Positions 2,449 to 23,811 of a DNA stretch of 32,000 nt are shown one piece after another. The notes under the pieces are model-generated. The model was not told the DNA's origin and made no database searches. It was given only the letters and a program-made list of their open reading frames with translations. Position 1 is the stretch's first letter. Each line of letters begins with the position of its first letter. The DNA comes from Vulcanisaeta distributa DSM 14429 (lineage in GTDB: Archaea; Thermoproteota; Thermoprotei; Thermoproteales; Thermocladiaceae), in the NCBI RefSeq assembly GCF_000148385.1, contig NC_014537.1:1950001-1982000 (forward strand), given 5' to 3'. The translations under genes and the position numbers were made by a program.

Positions 2449-2620
2449 GGTCGTAATTCTAATTGTTTAGATGTTAATAAACTTTGTTCTCCAGATTTCC
2501 TTAAAATAAAAATAATTTATTAATTACTATAAAATAATAATTAAATAATTTCATAAAATAGAATTCATAATTAATTAATATTATTCAGCAATATTATCAT
2601 CACATATATACTGCTCATTT

Positions 2621-8173: not shown

Positions 8174-9548
8174 GTCTGTCGTTTAGCAATCTTCTAATGA
8201 TCTTACCAATCACATCATATGTGTCTGGATGAATGTGAAGGTAATGAGCATATGCATTGTTTATTTGGAACCCATCAAATCCGTTTACTCCTGCACCCCT
8301 TTCATACTTAATGGTGAAGTCGTAATTTCCATGCAGAACTAATGAGGAGTAATGGAATTCATGGCCCATTATTACAGTACCAACATCACCGATAATGGAG
8401 TTCCTGATTACCCTGGCCCTTGCGTAGCCGTACCAGACGGGCCTTTTATGCATTATCGTTATAGCGTCTATGGCACCCACCATTTCATACTCCTCATTAT
8501 TGTAGACTATCGAGTTCGTCAGGTACATTAAACCACCGCACTCAGCATATAGGTACTTCCCTGAATCTATGAATCTACGCACATCAGCCCTAAGCGCCCT
8601 ATTCCTCTCAAGGTATTCCCCATAAACCTCGGGGAAACCACCACCAATTAGCAATAAGTCTATATCGCCAAGTCCCTGATCAACCTCTGGGTCGATAAAC
8701 TTAATATTACTCGTGAAGGACTGTATCCGCTCTATCGTCTCTGGATAATAGAACGTGAACGCCCTCCCACCCAGTATGCCCACCCTCAATTCACTACTAA
8801 CAACCTTAAATGACTCAGGACCTACGTTATCCCTCACATCAAGAGGCTCTGAGTATTCCTTAGCCACCTTAATGACCTTATTAACATCTATGAAACTCGA
8901 CGCCTCATTAAATACGTTAATCAGGCGCTGCTTATTGATCTCCTCAGCATGTATCAAACCCAGGTGCCTGTACTGCATTATATCCTCAAGGTCATCACTC
9001 CTTGGTATATAACCAAGGAATTCCAAGCCCTCACTCTCCACAGCAATCCTCAACTTATCAACCTGTCTCTGCGTAGTATTAGTAATTATGGCACCCACGA
9101 TCTTCACCTCACGATCAAAATCCCTCAACCCCCTAATTATTGCCCTCACGGTCCTATTAATCCTCTCCCCATTAATGACTAGTACGACTGGTGCCCTGAG
9201 CAACTTAGCTATTTGGGCGGTGCTACCCGCCTCACTTATACCGTCAACACTGTCGTAAAGCCCCGAGACACCCTCAATAATTGCGATGTCAGAATTCAGG
9301 GAATACCTATAGAACCTTGTTACTACCTTATCACCCATCAGCATGTAGTCCAGGTTCCTACTCGGTGCATTCACAATTACTGAGTGGTAACTCGGATCTA
9401 TATAGTCAGGGCCAACCTTAAATAGGGATACCCTAAACCCCGCCTTAATTAAAGCGTAAGCCAGCGCCAGTGTTACTGTGGTCTTACCATTCTTACCCTT
9501 ATACGAAGACACAACGAGCCTAGGCACTGTCGTCTCCATACCTATCAC
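8166..9548 (-). CDS. cbiA: Cobyrinic acid a,c-diamide synthase family amidotransferase (CbiA/CobB); a DsrN-like siroheme amidase candidate in this context
   Basis: 460-aa ORF. N-terminal P-loop-like region SSYKGKNGKTTVTLALAYALIKAGFRVSLFKVGPDYIDPSYH, and a C-terminal glutamine-amidotransferase-like half with YAECGGLMYL and GHEFHYS. It overlaps the end of the upstream tetrapyrrole methylase gene. A likely start is at METTV (9539). Confidence 0.85.
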   Translation of the reverse strand: MIGMETTVPRLVVSSYKGKNGKTTVTLALAYALIKAGFRVSLFKVGPDYIDPSYHSVIVNAPSRNLDYMLMGDKVVTRFYRYSLNSDIAIIEGVSGLYDSVDGISEAGSTAQIAKLLRAPVVLVINGERINRTVRAIIRGLRDFDREVKIVGAIITNTTQRQVDKLRIAVESEGLEFLGYIPRSDDLEDIMQYRHLGLIHAEEINKQRLINVFNEASSFIDVNKVIKVAKEYSEPLDVRDNVGPESFKVVSSELRVGILGGRAFTFYYPETIERIQSFTSNIKFIDPEVDQGLGDIDLLLIGGGFPEVYGEYLERNRALRADVRRFIDSGKYLYAECGGLMYLTNSIVYNNEEYEMVGAIDAITIMHKRPVWYGYARARVIRNSIIGDVGTVIMGHEFHYSSLVLHGNYDFTIKYERGAGVNGFDGFQINNAYAHYLHIHPDTYDVIGKIIRRLLNDRLN

Positions 9549-10170
9549 GCCTTACTATGAAGATGAGTGATGGAGCCTTCACATCATCAATGTTAGAGCT
9601 ATTATTAAGTCTATGAAACTCCTCGTCTGGGTACGTAACCCTACTAACTATTAAAATCTCGTGATCATCATTTAATTTACTAATTAGCTCCTTAATCATC
9701 CTCGTGCCCATGAAGACTACCTTAACGTCGGCCTTAACATCATAGTCAATGTCCGGATACGCCATTAATGCAACCACACCCTTTAACTCAATCATGTACT
9801 TAGCTGCGGCTGCCGTAAAACTACTGACCCCCGGCACTATTTCGCAGGGAACGCCATTACGTAGGGCCTCCCTACAAATCTCAATACCCCTACCAAATAT
9901 TACTGGGTCACCATTCTTGAGGAAGACTACGTTAAGCCCTTTCCTGGCTAATTCTATCGCCTTAATTACATACTCCCTGTGCGCATCGCCTCTCACGTGT
10001 CCCATGAATACCTTCCTGGCATTTGGTGCGTATGTGTTTATTATCTCCTCATTAACCAATGAGCCGTAAAATACAACGTCAGCCTTACTTAAGATCTTAA
10101 TAGCCTTCACGGTAATAAGCTCGGGATCCCAAGGACCAGCACCAACAACGTAAATTGGGATAATAATCAC
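9520..10170 (-). CDS. cobA: Uroporphyrinogen-III C-methyltransferase-like tetrapyrrole methylase (precorrin-2/siroheme branch)
   Basis: 216-aa ORF with a GTG start. Motifs are IYVVGAGPWDPELITVKAIKILSKADVVFYGSLV, LKNGDPVIFGRG and IVPGVSSFTAAAA, typical of SAM-dependent tetrapyrrole methylases. The SUMT assignment over other family members rests on context. Confidence 0.7.
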   Translation of the reverse strand: MIIIPIYVVGAGPWDPELITVKAIKILSKADVVFYGSLVNEEIINTYAPNARKVFMGHVRGDAHREYVIKAIELARKGLNVVFLKNGDPVIFGRGIEICREALRNGVPCEIVPGVSSFTAAAAKYMIELKGVVALMAYPDIDYDVKADVKVVFMGTRMIKELISKLNDDHEILIVSRVTYPDEEFHRLNNSSNIDDVKAPSLIFIVRRDRYGDDSA

Positions 10171-10240: not shown

Positions 10241-11035
10241 CTATTCTAAAATACTACTGTTGTTCCTTAGTTTTTTAATTTCATGTAATAAAACACAATC
10301 ATGGTAGTTAACTGAGAATTGCATACCTATGCATGACTTCCCACAAAGCGTGCACATGTAAACATAGGCATTACCATCAAGGCCTATGCTAATCACGAAT
10401 TTATCATTACCAATTAGGATTGATGATTTCGTAATTATACCACCATCAATAATCAGCCTACTAATTAAATAATGCATTGCCATGTTAATCACATCGTTAA
10501 GTAAGTCGTACCTAACTAATGACTTTAATTGATCCCTATGCTCAAGTATCATCATCATGACCGTCTTAGGGTCATCAATCATCCTCATGATGCCACTATC
10601 AATGCTCATTAGTGCAGGTAAAACACTTATTATTTTCATGATCCTTTGGCAACAATAGCTCCTTAGGTGCCATTTTTGGCATAGTTTGCTAAAGATAATG
10701 CTTTCATCATCAACGCAATTAAGCGCTAAGCACACGAGTAAACCCTTAACTGTTGATACATATATACCCCTTTCACTATTGGTATCACTAATATTCAACG
10801 GCCTTATTAATCCATACTGAAGCATCCTCTTAGCCTTCTTATACACTGTTGAGATGGCAAACCTCGTATTCTTAGAAATCCTGTATAATGTTATTGGTTC
10901 ATTATAAATAATATAAGCCAATAATTCCCTGGTGGTATCGTCAATGTCCATCTCAGTCAAGAGCCGTTGTCGTAATAATCGAATAGTAATGCCATGATCA
11001 TTAATTGCGGATTTACTCATTAACATAGCATTCAT
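10241..11035 (-). CDS. Putative transcriptional regulator: N-terminal winged helix plus C-terminal Cys cluster (paralog 1)
   Basis: 264-aa ORF. HTH-like LLAYIIYNEPITLYRISKNTRFAISTVYKKAKRMLQYGLI. C-terminal YVYMCTLCGKSC(x11)C, i.e. CxxCxxxC plus a further Cys/His. Full-length similarity to ORF 16995-17801. Confidence 0.65.
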   Translation of the reverse strand: MNAMLMSKSAINDHGITIRLLRQRLLTEMDIDDTTRELLAYIIYNEPITLYRISKNTRFAISTVYKKAKRMLQYGLIRPLNISDTNSERGIYVSTVKGLLVCLALNCVDDESIIFSKLCQKWHLRSYCCQRIMKIISVLPALMSIDSGIMRMIDDPKTVMMMILEHRDQLKSLVRYDLLNDVINMAMHYLISRLIIDGGIITKSSILIGNDKFVISIGLDGNAYVYMCTLCGKSCIGMQFSVNYHDCVLLHEIKKLRNNSSILE

Positions 11036-11765: not shown

Positions 11766-12143
11766 TCACTTCTCTTCGGGCAATGTGGGCGGTGGTAAGT
11801 ACTCCTCCTCCTTGGCAGCTAACTCCTTAATCTTGCTAAGCCTCTCCGGCTTCAATATCTCATCAAAGACCTCCCTACCAATACTCCTTAATTGGGCAAT
11901 AACCTCAAAGAGCTCCCTCTTAAAGGCCACCGGCGTTTCCTCAATGAAGCCCCTGGCATCAATCCTAGCCCTTGGAAACTCCTTTAGGATCCTCTGGGCA
12001 ACGTCGTCAGGAACCTCAAGCTCAATTACCTTAAGGTAACCGCCATATAGATCCTTAATAAACTTCTCCAATGGAGTACCTCTTATCCTCTCGAGTCTCG
12101 TCTTATCTAGTATTACGGAGATCTTGTAGGGCATGCTCATCAC
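11766..12143 (-). CDS. Small charged protein of unknown function, translationally coupled to sat (orf125)
   Basis: 125-aa ORF. Possible starts are GTG 12143, ATG 12140 and ATG 12134, all overlapping or abutting the sat TGA within AAAGAGGTGATGAGCATG (SD-like GAGGTGA). Acidic C-terminus EEEYLPPPTLPEEK. A T-tract (GGTTTTATT on the minus strand) follows the stop. Confidence 0.6.
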   Translation of the reverse strand: MMSMPYKISVILDKTRLERIRGTPLEKFIKDLYGGYLKVIELEVPDDVAQRILKEFPRARIDARGFIEETPVAFKRELFEVIAQLRSIGREVFDEILKPERLSKIKELAAKEEEYLPPPTLPEEK

Positions 12144-13525
12144 CTCTTTAACGGCACCTCCATTGGTGGTACATCAACCTCAAGCTCCCTCTCTTTTAAC
12201 TCGAGGTACTTCTTATTAACGAATGGGTAGCCATAGACCCTCCACCACCTGACAATGACCCTATAGACCTCAGGCCTAAAGATTATTGGCGGTGGCTCTA
12301 TGCCCTCGGCTATCAACCCCCTAATGAAGCTACCACTAAATCTCTGGGCTACATCTGTATGGGCGCACGTGTCGCTATAGGCTATTTCACCGCACTTCGG
12401 GCAGTACCAAAACTCCTTAATGTTAACAGGCCTTATCTTAAGGCCTTTATCTAGGTCATAAGGCGGGGCATTAAGGCCATAACTAGGTAGGCCCCTCTCC
12501 CAGAGTATTTGCGTTGCATATGGATCATAATAGTCGCCCACGGCAGCGTGATCCCTACCAAACATGTGGTGTGTACAACCCATGTTCTGCCTAATGATGC
12601 CGTGCAGTAACGACTCGAGTGGGTTACCATACCTCATGTCCCACAGCGTGAAGGTGACCATGTGCCTCTTCGGGCTTATGTAGCCGTACTTATTCAATGC
12701 CTCGTGACCCTCGAGGATTGCCTCATCGACGAAGTCCCCAAGCCTCTTTGCACCGATTATGGCGTTGACGAGTATTCCATGGCACGGCTCAATATCACCC
12801 AGGTATGCCGCATTCTTCATTAGGTGCTCATGACCGGTGTGCGGCACATTCCTAGTCTGGTGGGCGATCACCGTCCTCCAGCCCCTCCTTTGAATCTCCT
12901 CGCGGGATTTAGCCGGTGGGTACCAGAACCTATTGTATGGCTCCTTAAACACCGGCTCGTTAATCACGTACACCTTACCTGCCAACGCTGTGCCAGTCAT
13001 ACTTCTATATATCAACCAGCCAGGGTGCTTCTCATCAAACCTCTTCTTAACAACCTCTGGATTCCTCTCCGGCGTTCCAAACGTCCTATCGGCCAAGTCC
13101 TTGGGATCGAACCTCCAAATCTCCTCAACATCAAGTATTGCAAACGGTTGTCCCTTGAGCCTAAGCAATAACCTATCGCCCTCCTTAATACCAAGCTTCC
13201 TCAGGTCATCCTCACTGATGTCAAATATTATTGGGAATGGGAATAACCAACCATCGAGGAGTCTCCTCTCCTTAAGTACATTCTCAACCTCATTCCTAGT
13301 CATGAACCTATCCAGCGGGCTGAAGAAGCCATAGGCGATGGACATGATCTCCCTATACACATTCCTAATGGGTAAGCCGCTAATCGGATCCCTGGTTGCC
13401 CTTATGTCGTATGGTATTGCGCCGGCGGCCATGTTAATGACCTTATCCCTATCCCTAATCACCGCATCCACAAGCTTCCCTCCGTGTGGGGGTGGCATGT
13501 AGACCTTAAGACTCATGTGGACCAC
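12140..13525 (-). CDS. sat: Sulfate adenylyltransferase (ATP sulfurylase)
   Basis: 461-aa ORF. Motifs are QTRNVPHTGHEHLMK (HxxH) and GRDHAAVG. The Zn-ribbon-like CPKCGEIAYSDTCAH resembles sites described in thermophilic ATP sulfurylases. Directly downstream of aprA (1-nt gap). An SD-supported alternative start is ATG 13516. Confidence 0.93.
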   Translation of the reverse strand: MVHMSLKVYMPPPHGGKLVDAVIRDRDKVINMAAGAIPYDIRATRDPISGLPIRNVYREIMSIAYGFFSPLDRFMTRNEVENVLKERRLLDGWLFPFPIIFDISEDDLRKLGIKEGDRLLLRLKGQPFAILDVEEIWRFDPKDLADRTFGTPERNPEVVKKRFDEKHPGWLIYRSMTGTALAGKVYVINEPVFKEPYNRFWYPPAKSREEIQRRGWRTVIAHQTRNVPHTGHEHLMKNAAYLGDIEPCHGILVNAIIGAKRLGDFVDEAILEGHEALNKYGYISPKRHMVTFTLWDMRYGNPLESLLHGIIRQNMGCTHHMFGRDHAAVGDYYDPYATQILWERGLPSYGLNAPPYDLDKGLKIRPVNIKEFWYCPKCGEIAYSDTCAHTDVAQRFSGSFIRGLIAEGIEPPPIIFRPEVYRVIVRWWRVYGYPFVNKKYLELKERELEVDVPPMEVPLKR

Positions 13526-13526
13526 C

Positions 13527-15431
13527 TCATGGGAACTCTATTATGTGTATCACGGGCACCTTCCATAACTCCCACTGACCGGTTTTCGCATCATACCTTG
13601 AATTGACGAATACGTGCCAATTCTCATCATCCAGTGCCGGGTAATCCGCCCTAACGTAATAGCCAGGCCACCTAGTCTCCTTCCTAAACAGCATGTGCCT
13701 AACCACGGCCTCCGCAGTCAATATCCTGTGCCACAGCTCCCAAACTCTCATTAATTCATGCCAGTCCTGGGCAGCTGCGTAATTCATGAAGTCCTCCTTA
13801 AGGAACTGCAGTAGTTCCAGCGCCCTGTTGAGCATCCACTCGTTGGTCACGTACATTGTTGACCAACCACCGGCGTACTCATCCATGATCTTCTGAAGCC
13901 TGAACAGGCCCTGCTTCCAGTACATCTTAGTTGGGTCTATTGGATGCATGTAGCTCGGCCCAGTGACAACGTTATACCTACCCTTCTGGTAACGCTCCAG
14001 TGGCTCCATTATCTTGGCTATTAACGAATCAACCTGAGCTCTATCCACCTCAACCTTCTCATCGCTGTGATCCATCACGTATAGTACGGCGGACTTACCC
14101 GCCAACCTACCCTCAGTGAATGAACCACTACTGAACTTGTGCGGATTGGCGCCGCAGGCATCACCTGCACAGAATAAACCATCTAGGGTGGTCATCCTAT
14201 TATAGCCCCAGAAGTACTGGTACCTCCTGTCGTCTGGCAAGCCCTCAATCTTCTTAGGCGCTAAGTCCTCAGGTCCGCTGGCCCATGCACCGCACTCGGT
14301 GGCGTGGCTACCCATCACGTAGGGCTCCGTGGTAATTATCTCATAGGGCCTATCGGCTGGCTCGTGGTTTTGCCCAGCCCATATGACTACCTGGCTTATT
14401 GTCATGTCTAGGAAGTCCTCATAGGCTATCGCCTCGCTTTCAGTACCCTTCTTAACCGTCTCATCAGTCCTCATGAGGCTTGGCCCACGGCCAGCCAACC
14501 ACTCAAGGCGTTGGGCAAATACCCTAAGTGTTGTTGGTGTAATTGGCAAATCAACGTAGTTACCCTTACCGCTATACAGCTTCCTTATCTCATCGACATG
14601 GGGCTTCCAGAAGTCCTGCCCATAGGCATTGCTAATCCTCGTCTTAAGCAATAACTGATAAGCACCAACAGGTCCATAGCCATCCTTAAACCTTGGGACT
14701 ACAAATCTGGCCTCCATCATGGTCATTACGGCGCCGGCCTCGATTAACATGCCGTAGGATGAGGCGGAGGACCATGGTGGGTACCAACTCCTGCCAAGTC
14801 CCTCACCCTGAGACCTAGGCCTATATATCTGTGAACCACCACCTGCGGAGAGTATTACCGCCTTTGCCCTGAATACGTAGAATGTCCCATCATTTACGTT
14901 AAAGCCTACGGCACCAACGACCCTATTGGGATTACTCGGGCTCTTAAGTAGGTGCGTGACCATTACCCTATTGAATATATTCTCGTCACCAAGGGCCTTC
15001 CTGGCTGCCTCAGCTACTATTGGTTTATAGGACTCCCCATGAATCATTATCTGCCACTTACCTTCCCTAACATAGCACCCAGTCTTTGGCTCGGGCCATA
15101 TTGGTAATCCCCACTCATCAAATAAGTGGACTGTTGAGTCGACATGCCTCGCGTAGTCGTAGACCAAGTCCTCCCTAACAATACCCATTAAGTCACCCCT
15201 CACGTACTTAACGTAGTCCTCCACAGTATTCTCCTTGCACTTTAGACCCATGTACGTGTTAATTGCCGATAGCCCCATCGCCACCGCCCCACTCCTGTTT
15301 ATATTCGCCTTCTCCGCCAGCACAATCCTGCAGTTCCTACACCAATACCTCGTCTCCCAGGCAGCCCCACTACCAGCCATTCCGCCACCAATTATTAGTA
15401 TGTCCGCATCTACGTACCTAACCCTAACCAT
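13527..15431 (-). CDS. aprA: Adenylylsulfate (APS) reductase alpha subunit, FAD flavoprotein
   Basis: 634-aa ORF. N-terminal FAD fold DILIIGGGMAGSGAAWE. Fumarate-reductase-like flavoprotein length. 4-nt gap after aprB, with GGGGGTGA SD-like sequence upstream. Confidence 0.94.
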   Translation of the reverse strand: MVRVRYVDADILIIGGGMAGSGAAWETRYWCRNCRIVLAEKANINRSGAVAMGLSAINTYMGLKCKENTVEDYVKYVRGDLMGIVREDLVYDYARHVDSTVHLFDEWGLPIWPEPKTGCYVREGKWQIMIHGESYKPIVAEAARKALGDENIFNRVMVTHLLKSPSNPNRVVGAVGFNVNDGTFYVFRAKAVILSAGGGSQIYRPRSQGEGLGRSWYPPWSSASSYGMLIEAGAVMTMMEARFVVPRFKDGYGPVGAYQLLLKTRISNAYGQDFWKPHVDEIRKLYSGKGNYVDLPITPTTLRVFAQRLEWLAGRGPSLMRTDETVKKGTESEAIAYEDFLDMTISQVVIWAGQNHEPADRPYEIITTEPYVMGSHATECGAWASGPEDLAPKKIEGLPDDRRYQYFWGYNRMTTLDGLFCAGDACGANPHKFSSGSFTEGRLAGKSAVLYVMDHSDEKVEVDRAQVDSLIAKIMEPLERYQKGRYNVVTGPSYMHPIDPTKMYWKQGLFRLQKIMDEYAGGWSTMYVTNEWMLNRALELLQFLKEDFMNYAAAQDWHELMRVWELWHRILTAEAVVRHMLFRKETRWPGYYVRADYPALDDENWHVFVNSRYDAKTGQWELWKVPVIHIIEFP

Positions 15432-15435
15432 GCTC

Positions 15436-15927
15436 TCACCCCCTCACCTCAGCCTTAACAACCTCTGGAACCTTCGTTCTGGGTAGTTCAACGCCGAGCT
15501 TATTACCGCCAAGCTTCTCATGCTCGCAGGATAGGTACGGCGTCCTCAGGAATTCCCTAGGTGGCTCCGGGTATTCCTGCGGTGGCTTTATTGAACCCCA
15601 GGGCGTGGTCCTTATTGGAAATACGAAGTACTTAACCGTGCCATTCCTATACCTAATTGTCCAGTAAACCCTGTTAGTCTTCTCATCCCTGTAAACCTCA
15701 ACGGCACCACCAAGTGGTGTGAAGTCCATGTAGCCCCTTATCTGGACAGCGCCCTGTGGGCAGTGCTTAACGCAGTTGTAGCACTCCCAGCAGGACTCCG
15801 GCTCCGCGTTGTATGCCTTCCTACCGAATATGCCGGACTTCGTGAACCTCATTATGTGACTTGGGCATATGTTAACGCAGTCCCCGCATCCCGTGCACTT
15901 GGCCGGGATTACATAGGAGGGCATGCC
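15436..15927 (-). CDS. aprB: Adenylylsulfate (APS) reductase beta subunit, 2x[4Fe-4S]
   Basis: Ferredoxin motifs CTGCGDCVNICP and CWECYNCVKHCP. I place the start at ATG 15927 (MPSYVIPAKC...), preceded by GGTGGTGGGC and 7 nt after the upstream stop. The track start at 16011 would overlap the upstream gene. Confidence 0.92.
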   Translation of the reverse strand, partial: GMPSYVIPAKCTGCGDCVNICPSHIMRFTKSGIFGRKAYNAEPESCWECYNCVKHCPQGAVQIRGYMDFTPLGGAVEVYRDEKTNRVYWTIRYRNGTVKYFVFPIRTTPWGSIKPPQEYPEPPREFLRTPYLSCEHEKLGGNKLGVELPRTKVPEVVKAEVRG

Positions 15928-15934
15928 CACCACC

Positions 15935-16801
15935 TCATGAGTGCTTCTTTGGGTGACTTGGTACGTGGGACTCAAGCGCCCTCTCAGCCAACTCACCACT
16001 CCACGGGCCAAGTAGCCTAGGCTCTACGCCCTTCCAGGTCCTATACCTATCGTATAACTGCCATATATACATATAAATCGCATGTCCAAACTTCGTCCAA
16101 GGCATTGTGGCGAACATCATGGCCACTAGGAATATGTGGACAGTGAATGCCGTTGCCAATGCGTAGTAATTCAGCGGCATTGTTAATTCAATACCCATTA
16201 GGGCAAAGCCACTCAGTGAGACGAAGAAGGCCGTCCAGAGGAAGAAGTCCGTAACCGCAGGTTCACCGACTGGCCTAGTCCCCTGCCACCTGGCGATCAT
16301 CATGAGTATAAACCCAACAATTATCAAAACACCACCAACGGCGCCGGTGCCTATGACGGCGTATGGACCCATGGGGCCGAGCTTACCACCAGGTATGAAA
16401 GCCACGAGACCAGGTACGTCGCTTGGGACCCACTCATCGTAAATGAAGCCCAGGACTGTTGATATTGCCGCAAACACAAAACCCCACCAAACCAATGCAT
16501 GCGCCACCGCCTTAACCCTGGGCCTCCTTAGGTAAATTGACTGAGTGTGGCATGAGGTCATTGGCGCGCCGTAGAATGGGTATAGAAATGCCGTGATTAA
16601 GCCAGCAATAAAGGCGCCTGCGGAGCCCCAATTCCTCGTTGGACCCTTTATCGGCAGTACCCTGCTTAAGTTTGAAAGGGCTAGCACGCCCCTGCCTATC
16701 TCAATTGCGAAGCCGATAACCATCTCTATAACTAGCGCTATGGCTCCGTAAATTATCCATAGGTGCGGTATTGGTAGGTATAGTTCGATCATCAACCTCA
16801 T
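15935..16801 (-). CDS. Polytopic membrane protein, NarI/DsrM/HdrE-like (cytochrome-b-like), first gene of the apr-sat operon
   Basis: 288-aa ORF with about 6 hydrophobic helices. The last helix, TVHIFLVAMMFATMPWTKFGHAIY, shares H-x17-H spacing and the PWxK..H motif with the DsrM ORF (LAHVILAMIFIAYFPWGKMMHLF). 7-nt gap to aprB. Confidence 0.7.
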   Translation of the reverse strand: MRLMIELYLPIPHLWIIYGAIALVIEMVIGFAIEIGRGVLALSNLSRVLPIKGPTRNWGSAGAFIAGLITAFLYPFYGAPMTSCHTQSIYLRRPRVKAVAHALVWWGFVFAAISTVLGFIYDEWVPSDVPGLVAFIPGGKLGPMGPYAVIGTGAVGGVLIIVGFILMMIARWQGTRPVGEPAVTDFFLWTAFFVSLSGFALMGIELTMPLNYYALATAFTVHIFLVAMMFATMPWTKFGHAIYMYIWQLYDRYRTWKGVEPRLLGPWSGELAERALESHVPSHPKKHS

Positions 16802-16994
16802 ATTACTTTAGTTAAAAAATTATTTATTCCACATAGATTGTGAAAGCTTATATTATGCATGTAAATTATTATATATAATAATGAATATGAATGAATATAA
16901 TATTAATTCTTTATTAACACGAATAAATAATTATATTATGCCAATTTTTCTTATAAATATTAGTAATTTTTCTAAGATAAAACATAAATAATGA
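16802..16994 (-). promoter_or_regulatory. AT-rich promoter region of the membrane gene-aprBA-sat operon
   Basis: 193-nt AT-rich spacer. On the minus strand GGAATAAATAATTTTTTAAC ends about 15 nt before the ATG at 16801, a TATA-like box compatible with a short or absent leader. Confidence 0.4.
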
Positions 16995-17801
16995 TTATTT
17001 TACCAGATTTGATATATCTCTATTTAACTCATTAATTAGCGGGCAATGTTCATCACAGGTTGTGTATGTTAATACGCAATTCTTTTCACATAATCTGCAT
17101 ATATAGACATAAAGCATTTTGCTGTTTCTATAATACCCCACCAGGAATGAGTTGTTGCCAAGTATTATGTCAGGTCTTTTAACGTTGGATGAATTGCTCA
17201 ATATATTATTAACTAAATAGTAGATTGAGGTATTTTTAATGCTGGTGACTGTTGACTCGTCAATGAGTTTACCGCTTATCGATGAGTTGTTAATTAACGT
17301 GCTTAATGCCGTTATCATTAGCGTATCTATATTCTCAATTATTCTCAAACTCTCACCTCTGACTATGTGAGGTAGTATTGTGAGTATTGTTATTAGTTTA
17401 CCATTATCGTAATTCCTCAGATTCCACCTTGCCTTAAGTCTACTTAGCACTATATCATCGTCAAGGCACTTATATGCTAGGCACGTTAGTAATCCCTTAA
17501 CTGTGACTTCATAAACGCGCTTGCCATTAAGCCTATCACTTGATTCCCTGGCAAGTATTAGGTTATTCTTTACCATGTACTTAGCCTTCTTATAAATGGA
17601 TGATATGCTATATGGCGTTTCCCTAGAAACCCTGTATAGTGTAACCGGCCCCTTCATTATTATGTATGCGAGTATGTCGTTCATTACATTATCGTACTCA
17701 ACATTTACGAGCCTTCTAAGTTCTAACCTCAAACTCTCTGGGACCAGGTTACCATAATTAATGATGGCATCATGCCTCATTGAGTATATACGTATATTCA
17801 T
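16995..17801 (-). CDS. Putative transcriptional regulator: N-terminal winged helix plus C-terminal Cys cluster (paralog 2)
   Basis: 268-aa ORF. HTH-like ILAYIIMKGPVTLYRVSRETPYSISSIYKKAKYMVKNNLI. C-terminal YVYICRLCEKNCVLTYTTCDEHC, i.e. CxxCxxxCx6Cx3C. The true start may be the internal Met at 17780, given TTTTATAA at 17807-17814. Confidence 0.65.
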   Translation of the reverse strand: MNIRIYSMRHDAIINYGNLVPESLRLELRRLVNVEYDNVMNDILAYIIMKGPVTLYRVSRETPYSISSIYKKAKYMVKNNLILARESSDRLNGKRVYEVTVKGLLTCLAYKCLDDDIVLSRLKARWNLRNYDNGKLITILTILPHIVRGESLRIIENIDTLMITALSTLINNSSISGKLIDESTVTSIKNTSIYYLVNNILSNSSNVKRPDIILGNNSFLVGYYRNSKMLYVYICRLCEKNCVLTYTTCDEHCPLINELNRDISNLVK

Positions 17802-17904: not shown

Positions 17905-19314
17905 TCAAACGACTAGTGCCCTATAGACTAGGTCCATGAGTCCTGAATACTTAATTTCCTTTCCATACATCTTATTTAGATGGGGAACAACGTGGCTAAG
18001 CTGTGCCTTACATATTGAGCAGGGCCTAACGACCCACTGTGCGCCATGCTTAAGGGCATCTTCATACCAAAGCCTTGCGTATTGAATAGCTAGGGGCAGC
18101 ATTTCATCAGCCAGCATACCTCCCTGGCCTCCGCAGCACCATGTCTTACCTCTACTGTACTCGGAATCAACCCACTTTTTGACTACGTGGTTCATTATGA
18201 ATCTTGGTTCTTCTGTTAGGTCTCCACCCCTGGCGTAATAATCAGGGTCTTGGTACATGTACACTATGTCGCCGTTGGCCTCGGGATTAAGCTTAATCCT
18301 ACCCCTCCTAATGGCATCAACCACAAGATGGAATATGTGGAGTCCCTCAATACCGTATTCCCTCAACCTCGGTATCACGTAATTCTTGAATGCATGCCAG
18401 CCATGACCGCACTCGCAGAATACAGCTAACTTAACGCCCAGTTCTCTTGCTGCATTCACGTACATTTCGCCAATATACTTAAGGTGCCTTGGGTCTAGGA
18501 ACAGGCCGAAGTTCGCCACCTCCAGTAATTTTGTGCTTATTGTGTAGTCCATGCCTATGGCGTGCATGAACAATAGGTGGCCCTTGAGCGTCTCAATGTT
18601 CATGAAGAAGTCGGCAGATGATGGGAGTAGTAGGGCGTAGGCTGGCTGGTCAATTTTGACCTTTATTTCGACGCCCTTCTCCTGCTTTATCTCATTTATT
18701 ACGAACTCAAGTATATTCCTTATAGCGGCTGGAGTTAATGCCATATTATTGCCGGTTCTCTCCATGTTATCTATCGTCGTAACCACGAACCTAGAGGCCA
18801 TGCCCAATTCATACAGTATTGACCTCACGGTCCTGGTCAATGATGCTTGGTCGACACCGAATGGGCATATGGTGGCGCACTTCCTGCATAATAAGCATTG
18901 CCAGTAATATGTGTATAGCATCTCCAGGTAATTCTCATCAATTGCCTTAACGGCATTTACAGCCTTGCCAAGCAGTTTACCGCTTGGTTTTTCGGCCTTA
19001 ATCACAGCCCTTATTAGTTCTGCCCTGCCCACGGGCGAATTCCTAATATCACCCGTGGTTATGTACGTTGGACAAGCCGTTAAACAAGCACCACAATGAA
19101 CACAGGTCTCCACAGCCAGCTTAACATTCCTATTACTCTCATACTCCTCAAGCAGTTTCTTCTTGAAGTATGACACCTTGTCAATGCCGACCGGCGGCTT
19201 AAACCCTATCCTCGCATTAAGCCTCTCAAGTAGTTTGGCATCGGCCTTATGAGGCTTTATGTTCGATGTATCCCCGAACCTGAACTCAGGTAGTTTATGG
19301 GCCATGCTCATCAC
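17905..19314 (-). CDS. dsrK: DsrK/HdrD-like iron-sulfur protein (2x[4Fe-4S] plus CCG domain)
   Basis: 469-aa ORF. Motifs are CVHCGACLTACP and CLLCRKCATICPFG, a C-terminal CCG motif WCCGGQGG...CSICKAQ, and a degenerate first CCG region FCECGHG. The start overlaps the dsrM stop (GGGTGATGAGCATG). Confidence 0.85.
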   Translation of the reverse strand: MMSMAHKLPEFRFGDTSNIKPHKADAKLLERLNARIGFKPPVGIDKVSYFKKKLLEEYESNRNVKLAVETCVHCGACLTACPTYITTGDIRNSPVGRAELIRAVIKAEKPSGKLLGKAVNAVKAIDENYLEMLYTYYWQCLLCRKCATICPFGVDQASLTRTVRSILYELGMASRFVVTTIDNMERTGNNMALTPAAIRNILEFVINEIKQEKGVEIKVKIDQPAYALLLPSSADFFMNIETLKGHLLFMHAIGMDYTISTKLLEVANFGLFLDPRHLKYIGEMYVNAARELGVKLAVFCECGHGWHAFKNYVIPRLREYGIEGLHIFHLVVDAIRRGRIKLNPEANGDIVYMYQDPDYYARGGDLTEEPRFIMNHVVKKWVDSEYSRGKTWCCGGQGGMLADEMLPLAIQYARLWYEDALKHGAQWVVRPCSICKAQLSHVVPHLNKMYGKEIKYSGLMDLVYRALVV

Positions 19315-20126
19315 CCTGGTATTGACTTAACCCTAATCTTAATTGATGGCCTAGCCACCGTGGGCGATATGTATATGAATGAGAATAGGTGCATCATCTT
19401 GCCCCACGGGAAGTAGGCTATGAATATCATGGCTAGTATTACGTGGGCTAACGTGATCGGCGGCGCAGCCATAATGTAGCTAATTGCCTTATCCACATTG
19501 AATGATGCTAGGTTCCAAATCCAGGGAGCGACTGAATACTCGAAGAATCCAGGCTCAACAGACTCAAGCCATAAAGTTTGTATAAGACCTAATAATATTA
19601 TTAATAGGAGTAGTGCATCCGCGAAGTAATCATCGAGGTAACTGAGACTTCTCATTGGCAGTTTAACAACGAAGTTGCCAACCTTAACGCTCCTATCAAT
19701 TAACCTCCTACCAATGAGGATCAACATTCCAACCAATGCCATAACACCGCCTAAGCCACCGATAACCTTAGCCAATAACACATGCATTGTAGGTGAAATG
19801 CCCATGGCCCCGAGCTGCGCAGGCGGTATTAATAGGCCGAGGTGGCCCACGAGGGCTATCCAAATACCCCAGTGAAAGAGTACTGAGCCCACGAACAGTG
19901 CCGTGTCAGTGCCCGGCAACGTATAGAATAGGAATATCCTCTTGAGTATCTCAATCGTTATTTTACCATAGGAATCATCGTTCACTGTCGCATTAACGTT
20001 ATAAAGCCCCGTCAATGCCTTCGGCATTAACCACCTGACTAGCCTAAATATTATCCCAACTATGAATATTACAACGGCGATGTACGGTACATACCCAAAC
20101 ACGATTAGGTATGCGTAATTCATCAC
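19311..20126 (-). CDS. dsrM: DsrM/NarI-type di-heme cytochrome b membrane subunit
   Basis: 271-aa ORF with about 5-6 TM helices. His pairs have NarI spacing: FHWGIWIALVGH (H-x9-H) and AHVILAMIFIAYFPWGKMMH (H-x17-H). Paired with the downstream dsrK-like gene. Confidence 0.85.
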   Translation of the reverse strand: MMNYAYLIVFGYVPYIAVVIFIVGIIFRLVRWLMPKALTGLYNVNATVNDDSYGKITIEILKRIFLFYTLPGTDTALFVGSVLFHWGIWIALVGHLGLLIPPAQLGAMGISPTMHVLLAKVIGGLGGVMALVGMLILIGRRLIDRSVKVGNFVVKLPMRSLSYLDDYFADALLLLIILLGLIQTLWLESVEPGFFEYSVAPWIWNLASFNVDKAISYIMAAPPITLAHVILAMIFIAYFPWGKMMHLFSFIYISPTVARPSIKIRVKSIPG

Positions 20127-20819: not shown

Positions 20820-22001
20820 ATGAAGAGGATTGCCATCATGGGGGGCAACTTCTCCGGAATAGTCGTGGCTAATAAACTCGCCAAGAGACTTAGGTGGTCC
20901 GTGGCTAAGGGTGACGTGGAAATTGCATTATTCGATAGAAGTCCTAAGTACTTAATTCACGCGATGCTACCATTAATAACCTTTGGATCAATGAGTGAAA
21001 GGTACGCCGTTGGTGATAAGGCAGAGTTGCTAGATTCTAGGATTAAGTACTTCTTCGGTAAGTCAGGCGAGGTGGTTAATGTTGACCTGGCTAATAGGAC
21101 ATTGACGCTGGCTGATGGTAGTAAATATTCCTATGATTACCTCGTAATAGCGAGCGGCGCGGATTACGTACCTGAGGAGGTGCCCGGCTTATTAAAGGAC
21201 TATCACACGTACTACACGCTTGAGGGGGCTCTGGAACTTAGGAATATTCTTCAGGGCTTCAACAAGGGTACAATTGTTGAGCTCTTCGTTGAGCCGCCGA
21301 TTAAGTGCCCAATAGCACCGTTAAAATTTGGCCTGATGCTTGATGATTATCTCAGGGATAGGGGTGTGCGTGGTAATGTCGATGTAATGCTCCTCTATCC
21401 CACGGACCACTTACATGCGCAGCCCGAGGTTAATAAGTTAGGTAAAATCCTACTTGAGGAACGCGGTGTTAAGTATATTTTCAACTTCTCAGTGTCTGAG
21501 ATAAGGCCTGAGGAAAAGGTAGTGATTAGTGATAAGGGTGAGAAGATTAAGTATGACTTATTAATAACAATACCACCACATAGAGGCGCCAAGGCCATTA
21601 GGGATTCAGGTATTGGGGACCCATACGGCTTCGTGCCCTGTGACAGGTATACCCTACAATACCGTAAGGGTAAAACTAAGTATGATGAGGTTTACGTAAT
21701 AGGTGACGCCACAGCTCTTGAGGTTGCGAAGGCGGCATCAGTGGCTCACTATCAATCTGATGTGGTTGTTGAGAATTTAGTACATGATATAGCTGGCGAG
21801 GGCTCACAGGTTAGGTATAAGGGTGAGACAATATGCCCAATGCTCACGGACCTCTATACACAGCATGGTAGGGGTAGGGCATGGCTTCCGTGGTGGGACT
21901 ATAAGGTCAACGAGTTAACCTTCATAACGACTAGGTTTGGTTGGTGGTTCATAAGGGCATTCTACCTATCATTACCATTAACCATGAGGGGATTAGCATG
22001 A
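20820..22001 (+). CDS. Sulfide:quinone oxidoreductase-like FAD-dependent pyridine nucleotide-disulfide oxidoreductase
   Basis: 393-aa ORF. N-terminal Rossmann segment RIAIMGGNFSGIVVANKLAK. PPIKCPIAPLKF parallels the SQR redox-Cys motif PIKCAGAPQK. A second Cys sits in GETICPMLTD, and the FAD motif is VYVIGDATAL. Confidence 0.72.
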   Translation: MKRIAIMGGNFSGIVVANKLAKRLRWSVAKGDVEIALFDRSPKYLIHAMLPLITFGSMSERYAVGDKAELLDSRIKYFFGKSGEVVNVDLANRTLTLADGSKYSYDYLVIASGADYVPEEVPGLLKDYHTYYTLEGALELRNILQGFNKGTIVELFVEPPIKCPIAPLKFGLMLDDYLRDRGVRGNVDVMLLYPTDHLHAQPEVNKLGKILLEERGVKYIFNFSVSEIRPEEKVVISDKGEKIKYDLLITIPPHRGAKAIRDSGIGDPYGFVPCDRYTLQYRKGKTKYDEVYVIGDATALEVAKAASVAHYQSDVVVENLVHDIAGEGSQVRYKGETICPMLTDLYTQHGRGRAWLPWWDYKVNELTFITTRFGWWFIRAFYLSLPLTMRGLA

Positions 22002-22441
22002 GCACGGAGATTCCGACTAAGGTTATTGAGGAATTAATTAAGGACATGGATAAGGATAAAGCAATGATTGACATGCTAAATAAACTACTACTTCTCTACA
22101 AGTCTGGCGCATTTGATACTGCAGTTGAGTTATTAATGACGGTTAAGAACGTATCATCAGTAATTACAGATAGTATGATTGACAACCTGGCACTAACGTT
22201 AAGGGAATTAGCACCACTAATTGATGCGCTTGCCAATAACCCATTACTGAAGTTGCTTGGTGAATCATTAAATGATACTGAGGTTGATAAGGCAATAATT
22301 AAGGCTAAAGAAAAGGGGGTTAGCCTAGGTGATGTGATTGGACTTATGAGAAACAATGACGTGTTAACGGGCCTATACGTATTTTTAACAGTCATGAAGT
22401 CCCTGGGTAGGAAGGTTAGGGAATTTAAGGCTGAAGGTTAA
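21998..22441 (+). CDS. DUF1641-like small protein, partner of the SQR-like flavoprotein
   Basis: Start placed at ATG 21998, overlapping the upstream TGA (ATGA). The C-terminal VSLGDVIGLMRNNDVLTGLYVFLTVMKSLG matches my recollection of the DUF1641 C-terminal domain, which is commonly encoded next to such flavoproteins. Confidence 0.5.
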   Translation: MSTEIPTKVIEELIKDMDKDKAMIDMLNKLLLLYKSGAFDTAVELLMTVKNVSSVITDSMIDNLALTLRELAPLIDALANNPLLKLLGESLNDTEVDKAIIKAKEKGVSLGDVIGLMRNNDVLTGLYVFLTVMKSLGRKVREFKAEG

Positions 22442-22569: not shown

Positions 22570-23811
22570 ATGTCAACCCAAACAAGCCAGCCAAGCGACC
22601 TTGAGCGTGGCATGAAGATGCTGGAGTATCTTGAGGGTGGTCCTTGGCCTAGTTATGTGGCTGAGCTTAGGAAGACGAAGTACCCGATTGAGGCCTACGC
22701 CGAGGGCCTAGCCAAGAAGTACACGCCTTGGTTAAGTGGATCCTTCAGGGTTAGATACGTATTCAGCGGAATACTAGCCAGAAGAAGCAGAGATGGAAAG
22801 TTCGTTGAAATACACTTTAGAACCTATGTACCTGCTGGTAGATTCTACTCAACGAGTTATCTAAGGAAAGTCGTTGAGGTGGCTAAAAGGTACGGAATCG
22901 GCTTACTAGAACTTGGCGGTAACACTGGCGCATTAGTCCTTAACATGATTGCAGAAAAGGCGGATGAGGCTGTTGATGCAATAAGGACGATAATGGGTAG
23001 CGACGTTGGTGGCTCTGGCGACACGTTCAGGGAGTTCTACGCATGCCCTGGCCCTGCCCTATGTGAATTCGCATTATACGATACATTACATGCCATGGAT
23101 TACATTAGATCACATCCAGCAATTTATAGGTATCTCAATACACAGATGTTCCCGTACAAAATAAAGTTCAAGTTTAGTGGTTGTCCAATGGACTGCGCCA
23201 CAGCAAACTCAAGGGCCGACTTCGCATTAATCGGCACTTGGGTTGGTGCACCAGAGGTTGATCAGGGGCTATTCAGGAAAATGGTCGAGGAAGGTAAGAT
23301 AAACCCGAAGGAAATCGTTGATTCATGCCCATCAAAGGCCATTATCTGGGATGAGGAGAAGAAGGAGCTAAGGATAGATGGGTCTAAGTGCCTTAAGGCC
23401 ATGAATTGCATTAGGAGGGCGTTCCCGGCGATTAAGCCAGGTAAAAACAGGAAAATAGCATTACTCATTGGAGCGCACGCCCAGGGCCACTTTGGACCTA
23501 AGTTAGCCAAGGCTGTGGCACTCCTAGACTCAATAGAGGAGGTCATACCATTCGCTGAGGAATTAGTCAATAAGTACATGGAGCTAGCGCCACGTAGGCA
23601 TAGGATTGGCGATATGATAATTAGGAGGGGTTTCAAGGTAATTAGTGAGGTGGCTGATAAGACATTGCCTAATAAGCCAAGGGGTACGCCGTCTACGCAC
23701 TTAAGGATTTCTATTGGTGCTGTTTTGACTGATGATGAGAGGAGGTTGTATGAGGATTGGTCGAGGCAGTTGGTGAGTGAGTACTTTGGAGGTGGTTCTA
23801 GCACGGGGTGA
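22570..23811 (+). CDS. dsrA: Dissimilatory sulfite reductase alpha subunit
   Basis: 413-aa ORF. N-terminal LEGGPWPSYVAELRKT. Siroheme/[4Fe-4S] motifs CPGPALC (Cx5C) and GCPMDC (Cx3C). Ferredoxin-like insert. Followed directly by dsrB. Confidence 0.95.
   Translation: MSTQTSQPSDLERGMKMLEYLEGGPWPSYVAELRKTKYPIEAYAEGLAKKYTPWLSGSFRVRYVFSGILARRSRDGKFVEIHFRTYVPAGRFYSTSYLRKVVEVAKRYGIGLLELGGNTGALVLNMIAEKADEAVDAIRTIMGSDVGGSGDTFREFYACPGPALCEFALYDTLHAMDYIRSHPAIYRYLNTQMFPYKIKFKFSGCPMDCATANSRADFALIGTWVGAPEVDQGLFRKMVEEGKINPKEIVDSCPSKAIIWDEEKKELRIDGSKCLKAMNCIRRAFPAIKPGKNRKIALLIGAHAQGHFGPKLAKAVALLDSIEEVIPFAEELVNKYMELAPRRHRIGDMIIRRGFKVISEVADKTLPNKPRGTPSTHLRISIGAVLTDDERRLYEDWSRQLVSEYFGGGSSTG

Follow-up and report, generated by a model that had tools for sequence, protein, structure and literature searches.

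The route by which electrons reach APS reductase (AprBA) is among the less well-established parts of dissimilatory sulfate reduction. In crenarchaeal sulfate reducers, the electron donor of AprBA was explicitly called unknown in 2008 (PMC2211403), and it was later assigned to HdrA-like "type II" Qmo proteins by genome comparison. The stretch of Vulcanisaeta distributa DSM 14429 DNA analyzed here (32,000 nucleotides of contig NC_014537.1; "the window") raises the question of whether the donor might instead be encoded in the apr operon itself, since an open reading frame (ORF) for a membrane protein lies directly upstream of aprB. A first-pass annotation, made from the nucleotide sequence, had called this protein an orphan and proposed it as the membrane electron donor to AprBA. 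Our analysis argues that it is, fairly probably, an archaeal AprM-type cytochrome b connecting the quinone pool to AprBA, a reading in which heme binding and electron transfer are what we infer from the protein's sequence and its relatives.

The apr-sat operon and its conservation

The ORF (M) heads a compact unit in the order M-aprB-aprA-sat-DUF6955 (Table 1), confirming its earlier placement as the first gene of an apr-sat operon. Intergenic gaps of 7, 4, and 1 nt had been reported for this unit. The latter two, between aprB and aprA and between aprA and the GTG start of sat, are right, but the first is 10 nt rather than 7, because the aprB ATG lies at 15924-15922, not at 15927; the stop codon of the ORF (TGA) is at 15937-15935. 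A Shine-Dalgarno-like GAGGTG overlaps this stop codon ahead of aprB. On its other side, the ORF is preceded by a 193-nt AT-rich spacer (16802-16994), in which a TATA-like element has its center ~23 nt before the ATG and may serve as the promoter for a leaderless transcript of the operon.

Table 1. Genes, intergenic elements, and candidate functional residues of the M-aprBA-sat unit (positions are those of the window)
Feature	Position	Strand	Details
AprM-like/QmoC-membrane-domain-like protein ORF (M)	15935..16801	minus	288 aa, ATG start
aprB, APS reductase beta subunit	15436..15924	minus	162 aa; NCBIfam TIGR02060, E 1e-47
aprA, APS reductase alpha subunit	13527..15431	minus	634 aa; NCBIfam TIGR02061, E 9e-258
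sat, sulfate adenylyltransferase	12140..13525	minus	Pfam ATP-sulfurylase and PUA_2; NCBIfam NF003166
DUF6955 gene, conserved final gene of the unit	11766..12143	minus	overlaps sat stop; Pfam PF22271, E 1.6e-31
10-nt spacer GGTGGTGGGC, ORF stop to aprB ATG	15925..15934	minus	read directly
TATA-like AT-rich element AATAAATAATTTTTT	16813..16830	minus	putative; read directly from the sequence
Cys84-His85 codons	16547..16552	minus	cytoplasmic segment just before helix 94-123; alignment
His101 codon	16499..16501	minus	cytoplasmic end of helix 94-123; family conservation, HMMER alignment
His222 codon	16136..16138	minus	outer half of last transmembrane helix; aligned to NarI H187 and the DsrM His
His240 codon	16082..16084	minus	motif P-W-T-K-F-G-H; aligned to NarI His205 (proximal heme ligand) and DsrM
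C-terminal motif G-V-E-P-R-L-L-G-P-W-S-G-E	15992..16030	minus	cytoplasmic, conserved; motif counts

The immediate neighbors of the ORF are aprB and a gene encoding a winged-helix protein. As the first-pass annotation had stated, no HdrD/DsrK-like gene adjoins it, the window's DsrK-DsrM pair forming a separate unit (17905-20126), and qmoABC is absent from among the genes of the 32-kb window, as are HdrA-like genes. That the ORF is a genuine gene and not a random open frame is borne out by 14 close homologs (28 to 90% identity); a profile built from these matched 456 proteins at E ≤ 1e-3 in a search of 1.84 billion representatives.

Linkage of homologs to aprBA in other genomes had been named as a point on which the proposed donor role would stand or fall. 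In all 25 readable contexts, drawn from Vulcanisaeta, Caldivirga, Thermocladium, Thermoproteaceae, other Thermoprotei, Nitrososphaerota, and Marsarchaeota-like archaea, the homolog adjoins aprBA: 24 lie directly upstream on the same strand, and one, of a Thermoproteaceae type, is adjacent but divergent. In the 21 closest genomic loci (Vulcanisaeta, Caldivirga, Thermocladium, Nitrososphaerota, and unclassified archaea; four more relatives were examined singly), the gene always directly precedes aprB-aprA in the same orientation, and the gaps span −1 to +15 nt. Most related archaeal loci also carry the DUF6955 gene downstream of sat. No hdrA/qmoAB-like gene was noted in the related apr-linked loci when these were screened with the proteins of the window, and no alternative partner gene is conserved beside the ORF homologs. 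The gene is not universal for aprBA, since loci of other lineages have no homolog: one with an AprB-like protein without AprA (L060/61), one with a divergent AprA-like protein (L062/63), and one with aprBA-sat accompanied by DsrE/TusA (L064/65).

Family relationships and predicted fold

The "orphan" label does not hold: the ORF protein is a member of the QmoC/TcuB-type membrane domain family and a homolog of bacterial AprM. Among NCBIfam models, it matches that of QmoC, NF038018, in its membrane half (E 8e-12; model positions 219 to 354 of 360), with a score of 45 bits against a cutoff of 300, and the C-terminal membrane domain of the model for TcuB (tricarballylate utilization protein B, TcuB/CitB; E 8e-9). 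No Pfam model matched the ORF, PF02665 (Nitrate_red_gam) included. For two relatives of the ORF, a weak precomputed match to Pfam PF27541 ("CitB") is on record. By hhalign, the ORF clade is nearer to the membrane domain of QmoC (QmoC-like proteins: probability 99.8%, E 5e-29, 232 columns) than to AprM (AprM-type proteins: 98.3%, E 1e-14, 221 columns), and the wider family profile (A3) aligns with the window's DsrM (88.5%, E 3e-6) such that both helix-V histidines are in register. More distant family members serve other systems: QmoC, TcuB, and QmoC-like clusters in Nitrososphaeria and Archaeoglobaceae.

In sulfur-oxidizing bacteria assigned to "Apr lineage I," such as Allochromatium vinosum, aprMBA encodes the membrane protein AprM, and the archaeal AprBA clade has been reported as sister to the AprM-type bacterial clade. 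Our AprM reference proteins were encoded by genes directly upstream of aprBA in Sedimenticola and a betaproteobacterium; they scored 58 and 47 bits, respectively, against the archaeal profile. An AprM profile placed apr-linked archaeal proteins (Marsarchaeota-like, Nitrososphaerota, and Thermocladium types) above all QmoC-like proteins. The window's own clade ranked far lower, with the ORF alone at 13 bits; judged by these scores, the link between ORF and AprM is a transitive one, at the level of profiles. A neighbor-joining tree grouped the archaeal clade with AprM, and because bootstrap support for this node was only 36%, we do not claim orthology with AprM from it.

An AlphaFold model built from 103 sequences (pLDDT 82.6, pTM 0.81) has helices at residues 13-36, 60-76, 94-123, 145-172, 182-207, 212-231, and 238-257, six of them hydrophobic and one amphipathic. 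It replaced a first model (15 close sequences; pLDDT 66) whose Foldseek matches were meaningless, for example, to TRPV channels, and did not include NarI. With the better model, the two best PDB matches in Foldseek were NarI chains (probability 1.00, E 0.05 to 0.07, TM 0.46 to 0.49), a weak similarity. A profile search of the PDB likewise returned NarI only (E 0.1) and no solved structure of QmoC, HdrE, or AprM. The matches to NF038018 and DsrM given above, and more weakly those to NarI, favor a relationship to NarI-type cytochromes b, the other point on which the first-pass proposal had been made to depend.

In its most likely topology, the modeled protein has five transmembrane helices, with the N terminus outside, the C terminus in the cytoplasm, and helix 60-76 on the cytoplasmic side, because this arrangement is the one favored by the positive-inside rule; the model and the rule thus yield the about five transmembrane helices characteristic of AprM-type proteins. 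We rejected a topology with six transmembrane helices and an inside N terminus, as in QmoC: it would place a loop with four Lys/Arg residues outside, and it is also opposed by helix 60-76 being amphipathic in all other subgroups.

Candidate heme ligands and the AprB partner

The last helix of the ORF protein (TVH222-IFLVAMMFATMPWTKFG-H240AIY) contains an H-x17-H pair. The same spacing, as had been pointed out from the sequence, occurs in the DsrM ORF at 19311-20126 (LAH-x17-H, with the similar motif FPWGKMMH) and in helix V of NarI, the respiratory nitrate reductase gamma subunit (PDB 1Q16 chain C), where His187 and His205 align with His222 and His240 of the ORF. The H-x9-H pair of NarI helix II had been described as missing, and it is: the equivalent helix has only His101 (AHALVWW), with His85, beside Cys84, 15 residues upstream. 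This absence is not peculiar to the ORF; it is a general trait of QmoC-type domains, including QmoC itself. In the HMMER alignment, His101 lies one helical turn from the position of NarI His56, and Thr115 occupies that of NarI His66.

At least 90% of 103 family members retain His101 and His240 (for His101, these include AprM and QmoC-like proteins), and all 23 sequences aligned from the archaeal, AprM, and QmoC-like groups have His at position 240. In one Thermoproteaceae subgroup, Lys replaces His101. His101 and His240 are predicted to ligate a heme b on the cytoplasmic side (proximal heme). At position 222, equivalent to the outer (distal) heme ligand of NarI, His187, both the archaeal apr-linked clade and QmoC-like proteins have His; AprM-type proteins have Tyr there. 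Cys84, the single cysteine of the ORF protein, is common to the archaeal, AprM, and QmoC groups, as are His101 and His240; His85 is restricted to a Thermoproteales-like subclade, and His13 is not conserved outside the subclade of the ORF. We considered His85 or Cys84 as a second ligand of an outer heme and discarded both, their segment being on the cytoplasmic side.

After its first CxxC, the window's AprB shows a 5-residue gap in alignments with 1jnr_B and 3gyx_B; the 5-residue loop missing here is present in AprB of A. fulgidus and D. gigas. Meyer and Kuever tied this loop to Qmo docking and found it absent in AprM-type and crenarchaeal AprB (PMC2211403). By this sequence feature, the window's AprB is of the type not dependent on Qmo. 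The cytoplasmic C-terminal motif of the ORF protein (Table 1) takes the form (E/S)-P-x-L-P-x-P in the wider family. Of the apr-linked archaeal proteins, 27 of 39 contain L[LP]xP, as do 120 of 122 in a redundant set of AprM proteins; the corresponding figures are 1 of 41 for QmoC-like proteins and 0 of 66 for the remaining stand-alone relatives. The tail bearing it (EPRLLGPWSGELAE) is a candidate docking segment for AprB.

Set against known systems, the ORF protein resembles AprM in its genetic context: both are encoded in the order M-aprB-aprA with tight spacing, often with sat, and both are similar in size (about 250 aa in AprM) and helix count. They share Cys84, His101, His240, and a C-terminal (E/S)-x-x-L-P-x-P motif, and in both cases the partner AprB lacks the Qmo-type loop. 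They differ in that AprM, with Tyr at the position of His222, is probably missing the outer heme ligand, whereas the ORF protein adds His13, His85, the hydrophobic helix 60-76, and a longer, His-rich tail; moreover, the host of the ORF is a sulfate reducer, so electron flow would be opposite. QmoC is the best-scoring relative of the membrane module, shares the conserved Cys and three His residues, and is likewise a proposed link between the quinone pool and AprBA. The ORF protein differs from QmoC in lacking the N-terminal HdrC-like domain, with its two [4Fe-4S] clusters, and in having one transmembrane helix fewer; its gene lies upstream of aprBA, whereas QmoC genes lie downstream, and has no qmoAB beside it. 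With NarI and DsrM it has in common the H-x17-H pair of the last helix and, probably, the superfamily and the helix arrangement; however, in place of the helix-II pair of NarI it has one His, located about one turn closer to the cytoplasm, and its partner would be AprB, not NarH or DsrK, the latter being the adjacent DsrK/HdrD-like CCG-domain protein with which DsrM is paired and of which the ORF has no counterpart next to it. TcuB has the same type of C-terminal membrane domain, but this is preceded by an FeS domain at the N terminus, and the partner of TcuB, in another pathway, is the flavoprotein TcuA.

Proposed electron transfer to AprBA

Homology, gene linkage, conservation of the candidate ligands, and an AprB of the type not dependent on Qmo support a direct AprM-AprBA link. 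From them we infer that the ORF protein binds heme and oxidizes quinol, that AprB docks on it, and which way the electrons flow, as follows. The ORF protein would be a stand-alone cytochrome b module of the NarI superfamily, as in the C-terminal half of QmoC, and the archaeal counterpart of AprM, whose gene directly precedes aprBA in many sulfur-oxidizing bacteria. It would form the membrane subunit of a membrane-attached APS reductase with the arrangement AprM-AprB-AprA. It would sit in the membrane via about five helices with its C terminus in the cytoplasm. His101 and His240 would hold a heme b near the cytoplasmic face, and His222 would bind a second heme b, or line a quinone site, towards the outer face; in the subclade of the ORF, His13 may be the partner ligand of His222. 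Reduced menaquinone would be oxidized by the ORF protein, and electrons would pass via the heme(s) to the surface-exposed [4Fe-4S] cluster of AprB, docked on the protein's cytoplasmic face and conserved C-terminal tail, and from AprB to the FAD of AprA, where APS would be reduced to sulfite and AMP. The menaquinol and APS/sulfite couples are nearly isopotential; a NarI-like redox loop building proton motive force would therefore lack driving force.

That near absence of driving force from menaquinol to APS also suits a different reading, in which the ORF protein is a mere membrane anchor or scaffold without a redox cofactor and AprBA receives its electrons from, e.g., type II QmoABC. In the literature, AprM figures as a membrane anchor in which no cofactor site can be recognized (PMC3779200), and Lys at 101 in the Thermoproteaceae subgroup and Tyr at 222 in AprM-type proteins show that the His set can be lost. 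In addition, published tables place a type II QmoCBA cluster elsewhere in the genome of Vulcanisaeta moutnovskia, qmoABC is listed for V. souniana, and the HdrA-like type II Qmo of Vulcanisaeta is treated in the literature as the partner of AprAB; given these clusters, a window without qmoABC does not mean a genome without it, and the type II qmoABC of Vulcanisaeta remains a rival electron donor to AprBA. A pure anchor, however, would need neither the highly conserved His101 and His240, which are in register with the heme ligands of NarI and DsrM, nor the surrounding Gly and Thr residues, which are invariant, and in QmoC this module is reported to bind two hemes b, reducible by quinols (PMC3779200). 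We regard a cofactor-free anchor as unlikely.

The type II cluster also bears on the idea that the ORF protein is a split-off QmoC membrane subunit that works with soluble, HdrA-like QmoAB proteins encoded elsewhere and, instead of passing electrons straight to AprB, tethers a Qmo-type confurcating complex to AprBA: the cluster has its own QmoC. The ORF protein also lacks the HdrC-like FeS domain that joins QmoC to QmoB, its AprB lacks the Qmo-type docking loop, and no hdrA/qmoAB-like gene was seen beside its gene in the window or noted in the related loci when these were screened with window proteins. Such a role thus seems to us quite improbable, even though the hhalign scores favor QmoC over AprM, the residues Cys84, His101, His222, and His240 are the QmoC set, and Vulcanisaeta does have HdrA-like QmoAB genes. 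Since distant relatives serve other systems, adjacency to aprBA might be incidental, with the ORF protein serving a different oxidoreductase as a NarI- or DsrM-like subunit or having a role outside sulfur metabolism; but the readable contexts represent at least five archaeal lineages, and the adjacency recurs in every one of them, the stop and start codons overlapping or nearly doing so and no other partner gene being conserved alongside; we give this explanation very little credence.

For more than 10 years, AprM has been described as a membrane anchor that resembles no known domain. Taking the AprM-type cytochrome b reading further, we tentatively suggest, while considering it doubtful as a whole, that AprM is really a NarI/QmoC-type cytochrome b of which the archaeal proteins keep the ancestral form, with QmoC's full set of His and Cys residues. 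APS reductase would then have been linked to the membrane originally by a stand-alone, quinone-interacting heme module bound directly to AprB, QmoC would be this module fused to an HdrC-like domain, and bacterial AprM would have lost the outer heme ligand (His to Tyr); M-AprBA, not QmoABC, would be the physiological quinol:APS oxidoreductase in archaeal sulfate reducers. Our literature searches on AprM together with archaea returned no statement on such a gene; a study of sulfate reduction in Vulcanisaeta (Chernyh et al. 2020, Nat Microbiol) may mention it.

The ORF provides a concrete candidate for the AprBA electron donor, one whose gene shares an operon with aprBA in all archaeal lineages that we examined, and its relationships place the widespread bacterial AprM in a known heme-binding protein family, with His101, His222/Tyr, His240, and Cys84 as the residues of interest. 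If confirmed, the finding would improve annotation of these genes, currently labeled "hypothetical protein," "adenylyl-sulfate reductase," or "nitrate reductase gamma subunit." It would also permit simpler models of the archaeal pathway and would inform the question of how the Sat-AprBA module came to be connected to the membrane in the first place.

The sulfate-reduction island and its apr unit

Judged by its sequence, the window holds a Vulcanisaeta-type sulfate-reduction island, whose parts we assigned by Pfam and NCBIfam scans. Among genomes, Vulcanisaeta sp. JCM 16159 matches most closely: gene order is the same, and the membrane protein that opens the apr unit (here, M) is 95% identical. 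The M-to-aprB spacer is 10 nt (GGTGGTGGGC), rather than the 7 nt of the first-pass annotation, and a GAGGTG overlaps the M stop codon; the following gaps are 4 nt (aprB-aprA) and 1 nt (aprA-sat). A 193-nt AT-rich spacer lies 5′ of M, and an AATAAATAA element stands ∼23 nt ahead of its ATG, a position that would fit expectation for a leaderless archaeal transcript.

Features of the island in window coordinates
Feature	Position	Strand	Remark
Three TauE/SafE permeases	1507-5028	-	Pfam/NCBIfam
DsrN + tetrapyrrole methylase	8166-10170		Pfam/NCBIfam
Winged-helix paralog	10241-11035	-	
DUF6955 gene	12143-11766	-	overlaps sat stop
sat	13525-12140	-	next after aprA
aprA	15431-13527	-	next after aprB
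aprB	ATG at 15924	-	next after M
M (288 aa)	15935-16801	-	
Winged-helix protein	16995-17801	-	Pfam/NCBIfam
DsrK-DsrM	17905-20126		Pfam/NCBIfam
SQR-like flavoprotein with DUF1641	20820-22441	+	Pfam/NCBIfam
DsrAB	22570-24944		Pfam/NCBIfam
DsrC	26028-26363		Pfam/NCBIfam

Several neighboring genes recur elsewhere. sat and the DUF6955 gene travel together in nearly all archaeal apr loci examined, including those where sat is divergent from aprBA (the DUF6955 gene is also found in L001, L004, L006, L009, L010, L020, L067, and L069), and the DUF6955 protein looks like a dedicated partner of archaeal Sat. The three consecutive TauE/SafE permease genes, one of them a fusion to DUF1634, encode candidates for sulfate or sulfite transport in this pathway; TauE and DUF1634 genes adjoin sat on an unrelated archaeal contig too (L067, 52-2231). 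Two paralogs of ∼265 aa, both showing a weak winged-helix domain of the F-93-like type, flank the M-aprBA-sat unit and may be regulators of the island; the pair is also present in Vulcanisaeta loci L001, L007, and L008. Between dsrMK and dsrAB, the genes for the sulfide:quinone-reductase-like flavoprotein (Pyr_redox_2) and the DUF1641 protein would overlap by ∼60 nt with the TTG start as listed.

Family membership and candidate ligands of M

Every sequence motif quoted in the first-pass annotation is present in the ORF, which had no match in a Pfam scan. In NCBIfam, its residues 96 to 244 match the C-terminal membrane part of QmoC, the membrane subunit of QmoABC (model positions 219 to 354 of 360; E = 8e-12), and the ORF also matches TcuB (E = 8e-9), both scores being far under the full-length cutoffs. 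Only 14 close homologs were found among 5.8 billion proteins, most without a named source and the named ones from Vulcanisaeta or Caldivirga; those with labels are called "hypothetical protein" or "nitrate reductase gamma subunit." A profile based on these homologs retrieved 456 proteins (E ≤ 1e-3) from 1.84 billion representatives, including stand-alone proteins of 200 to 300 aa and QmoC/TcuB-like proteins of 360 to 430 aa, whose matching segment falls in the C-terminal half, after an FeS domain.

Profile-profile comparison aligned the clade of archaeal relatives with QmoC-like proteins over 232 columns (probability, 99.8%; E = 5e-29) and a wider family profile (103 sequences) with the DsrM of the window (probability, 88.5%; E = 3e-6), His222 and His240 falling on both DsrM helix-V histidines. 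Among solved structures, the clade profile found NarI alone (E = 0.1), with the same two residues on NarI His187 and His205. For an AlphaFold model from the 103 sequences (pLDDT, 82.6; pTM, 0.81), the top two PDB matches were NarI chains, with weak statistics (probability, 1.00, but E = 0.05 to 0.07 and TM = 0.46 to 0.49); a PDB search with an earlier low-confidence model gave nothing. The NarI-type similarity proposed at first reading is supported, weakly by structure and also through QmoC and DsrM.

The archaeal, AprM, and QmoC-like groups nearly always share Cys84, His101, Gly107, Phe108, Arg171, Asp185, Lys237, and His240, and most also have Thr115. Position 222 is His in the archaeal clade and QmoC-like proteins and Tyr in AprM-type proteins, bacterial and archaeal alike; His13 and His85 are confined to a Thermoproteales-like subclade and its nearest relatives. 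Position 101 is Lys in a Thermoproteaceae subgroup (L067, 5001-5813; L069/L070, 5001-5903), whose gene is divergent from aprBA in one case. The missing helix-II H-x9-H pair, correctly noted earlier, is thus a trait of QmoC-type proteins in general rather than a peculiarity of this one. Aligned with NarI, His101 is displaced by one turn toward the cytoplasm from NarI His56, and Thr115 occupies the His66 position. Charge distribution favors a predicted topology of five transmembrane helices, N terminus outside and C terminus inside, which would place His101 and His240 on the cytoplasmic side and His222 (and His13) on the outer side. Two hemes b are reported for QmoC (PMC3779200).

Linkage to aprBA and relation to AprM

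Scanning the family alignment against one genome per GTDB species gave 56 loci; the context of the 21 closest (Vulcanisaeta, Caldivirga, Thermocladium, several Nitrososphaeria/Thaumarchaeota MAGs, and unclassified archaea) was determined by local tblastn with window proteins and ORF extraction. In all 21, the M homolog lies directly upstream of aprB-aprA on the same strand (gaps, -1 to +15 nt), with sat next in most and DUF6955 too in many. Four further relatives adjoin aprBA: a Marsarchaeota-like gene whose stop codon overlaps the start of a following aprB-aprA-sat, P0018 followed by aprB-aprA (divergent sat-DUF6955 and TauE genes are close by), one from a Thermoprotei MAG followed by aprB-aprA-sat, and one from a Thermoproteaceae MAG that adjoins aprB-aprA-sat-DUF6955 but is transcribed divergently. 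The linkage anticipated in the first-pass annotation extends to other genomes. The more remote matches are of two kinds, QmoC genes located 4 to 6 kb downstream of aprBA and QmoC-like ORFs that belong to other clusters. M is not universal for aprBA: a local context check of three other AprB-like genes found no M gene.

Variants occur around these loci. The gene for a 187-aa AprB-like protein (71% identical, with a C-terminal extension; L060, 597-1160; L061, 792-1355) is flanked by one for a soluble protein of 211 aa and one for a 401-aa protein lacking Pfam matches; since neither aprA nor a membrane gene is nearby, the AprB-like protein may be a paralog that works with a different partner. In two archaeal MAGs, a second and distant M paralog (24% identity; L017, 290-829, minus strand; L019, 4370-4882, plus strand) lies a few kilobases from the apr-linked copy. 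Many frameshifts interrupt M, aprA, sat, and dsrK in the JCM drafts of Vulcanisaeta and Thermocladium (L007, L008, and L011); since every gene is hit alike, the cause is most probably sequencing error, not gene decay. Two Vulcanisaeta strains have a second, distant DsrK-like gene (26 to 27% identity) upstream of dsrM (L001, 2337-3581; L007, 2336-3580); as their DsrM is just 50% identical to that of the window, the dsrMK region varies between strains more than the apr unit.

The position of AprM, 4 to 5 nt upstream of aprBA, is occupied in Sedimenticola and a betaproteobacterial MAG by a 252-aa protein without a Pfam match, named "adenylyl-sulfate reductase" by NCBI and belonging to a family of >7,000 members. 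Profile comparisons indicate homology between these proteins and the archaeal family: with the archaeal profile the two reach 58 and 47 bits, and hhalign aligned the archaeal clade with the AprM type over 221 columns (probability, 98.3%; E = 1e-14). They also match the membrane half of QmoC and TcuB. An AprM profile placed archaeal apr-linked proteins above every QmoC-like protein (Marsarchaeota-like, 145 bits; Nitrososphaerota type and Thermocladium, 55 to 74 bits), the window protein reaching only 13 bits. In a neighbor-joining tree (145-column core), archaeal apr-linked proteins grouped together (54% bootstrap) and AprM was their sister (36%), which is compatible with, but does not prove, M-AprM orthology. 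After the last His, an L-(L/P)-x-P motif preceded by G-x-(E/S) occurs in 27 of 39 archaeal linked proteins, 120 of 122 AprM proteins (a redundant set), 1 of 41 QmoC-like proteins, and none of 66 other stand-alone relatives. Marsarchaeota-like and Thermoprotei MAGs also encode AprM-type proteins with Tyr at position 222 (L066, 3140-3883; L071, 810-1568), upstream of aprB-aprA-sat and adjoining DsrE/TusA or metallophosphatase genes; this arrangement suggests an oxidative-type module in archaea.

The electron donor to AprBA

Compared with Archaeoglobus fulgidus and Desulfovibrio gigas AprB, the window AprB has a 5-residue gap right after the first CxxC. Meyer and Kuever tied the loop missing here to Qmo docking, reported that AprM-type and crenarchaeal AprB lack it, and stated the electron donor of crenarchaeal AprBA as unknown (PMC2211403). 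"Type II" QmoABC-like proteins, which the literature places elsewhere in Vulcanisaeta genomes, may serve as donor instead or in addition. The reading best supported by these results is a complex of M and AprBA bound to the membrane, with M as a cytochrome-b-like module that would pass electrons between quinones and AprB. That M belongs to the QmoC/AprM family and is a dedicated partner of AprBA is very probable; putative heme-mediated transfer from quinol to AprBA is somewhat favored.

AprM and QmoC are already known as kinds of system, relatives of M are now and then labeled NarI-like by automated annotation, and the genes between AprB and DsrK carry no classification in a DiSCo-based synteny table of V. 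moutnovskia and V. distributa. In the accessible literature, which excludes the key 2020 Vulcanisaeta paper, we found neither archaeal aprBA operons starting with an AprM/QmoC-type module, nor AprM placed in the NarI/QmoC cytochrome b superfamily with identifiable ligand residues, nor linkage reaching Nitrososphaerota and Marsarchaeota-like lineages. The menaquinol and APS/sulfite couples are nearly isopotential, which makes a NarI-style energy-conserving redox loop unlikely and gives weight to where the quinone site lies.
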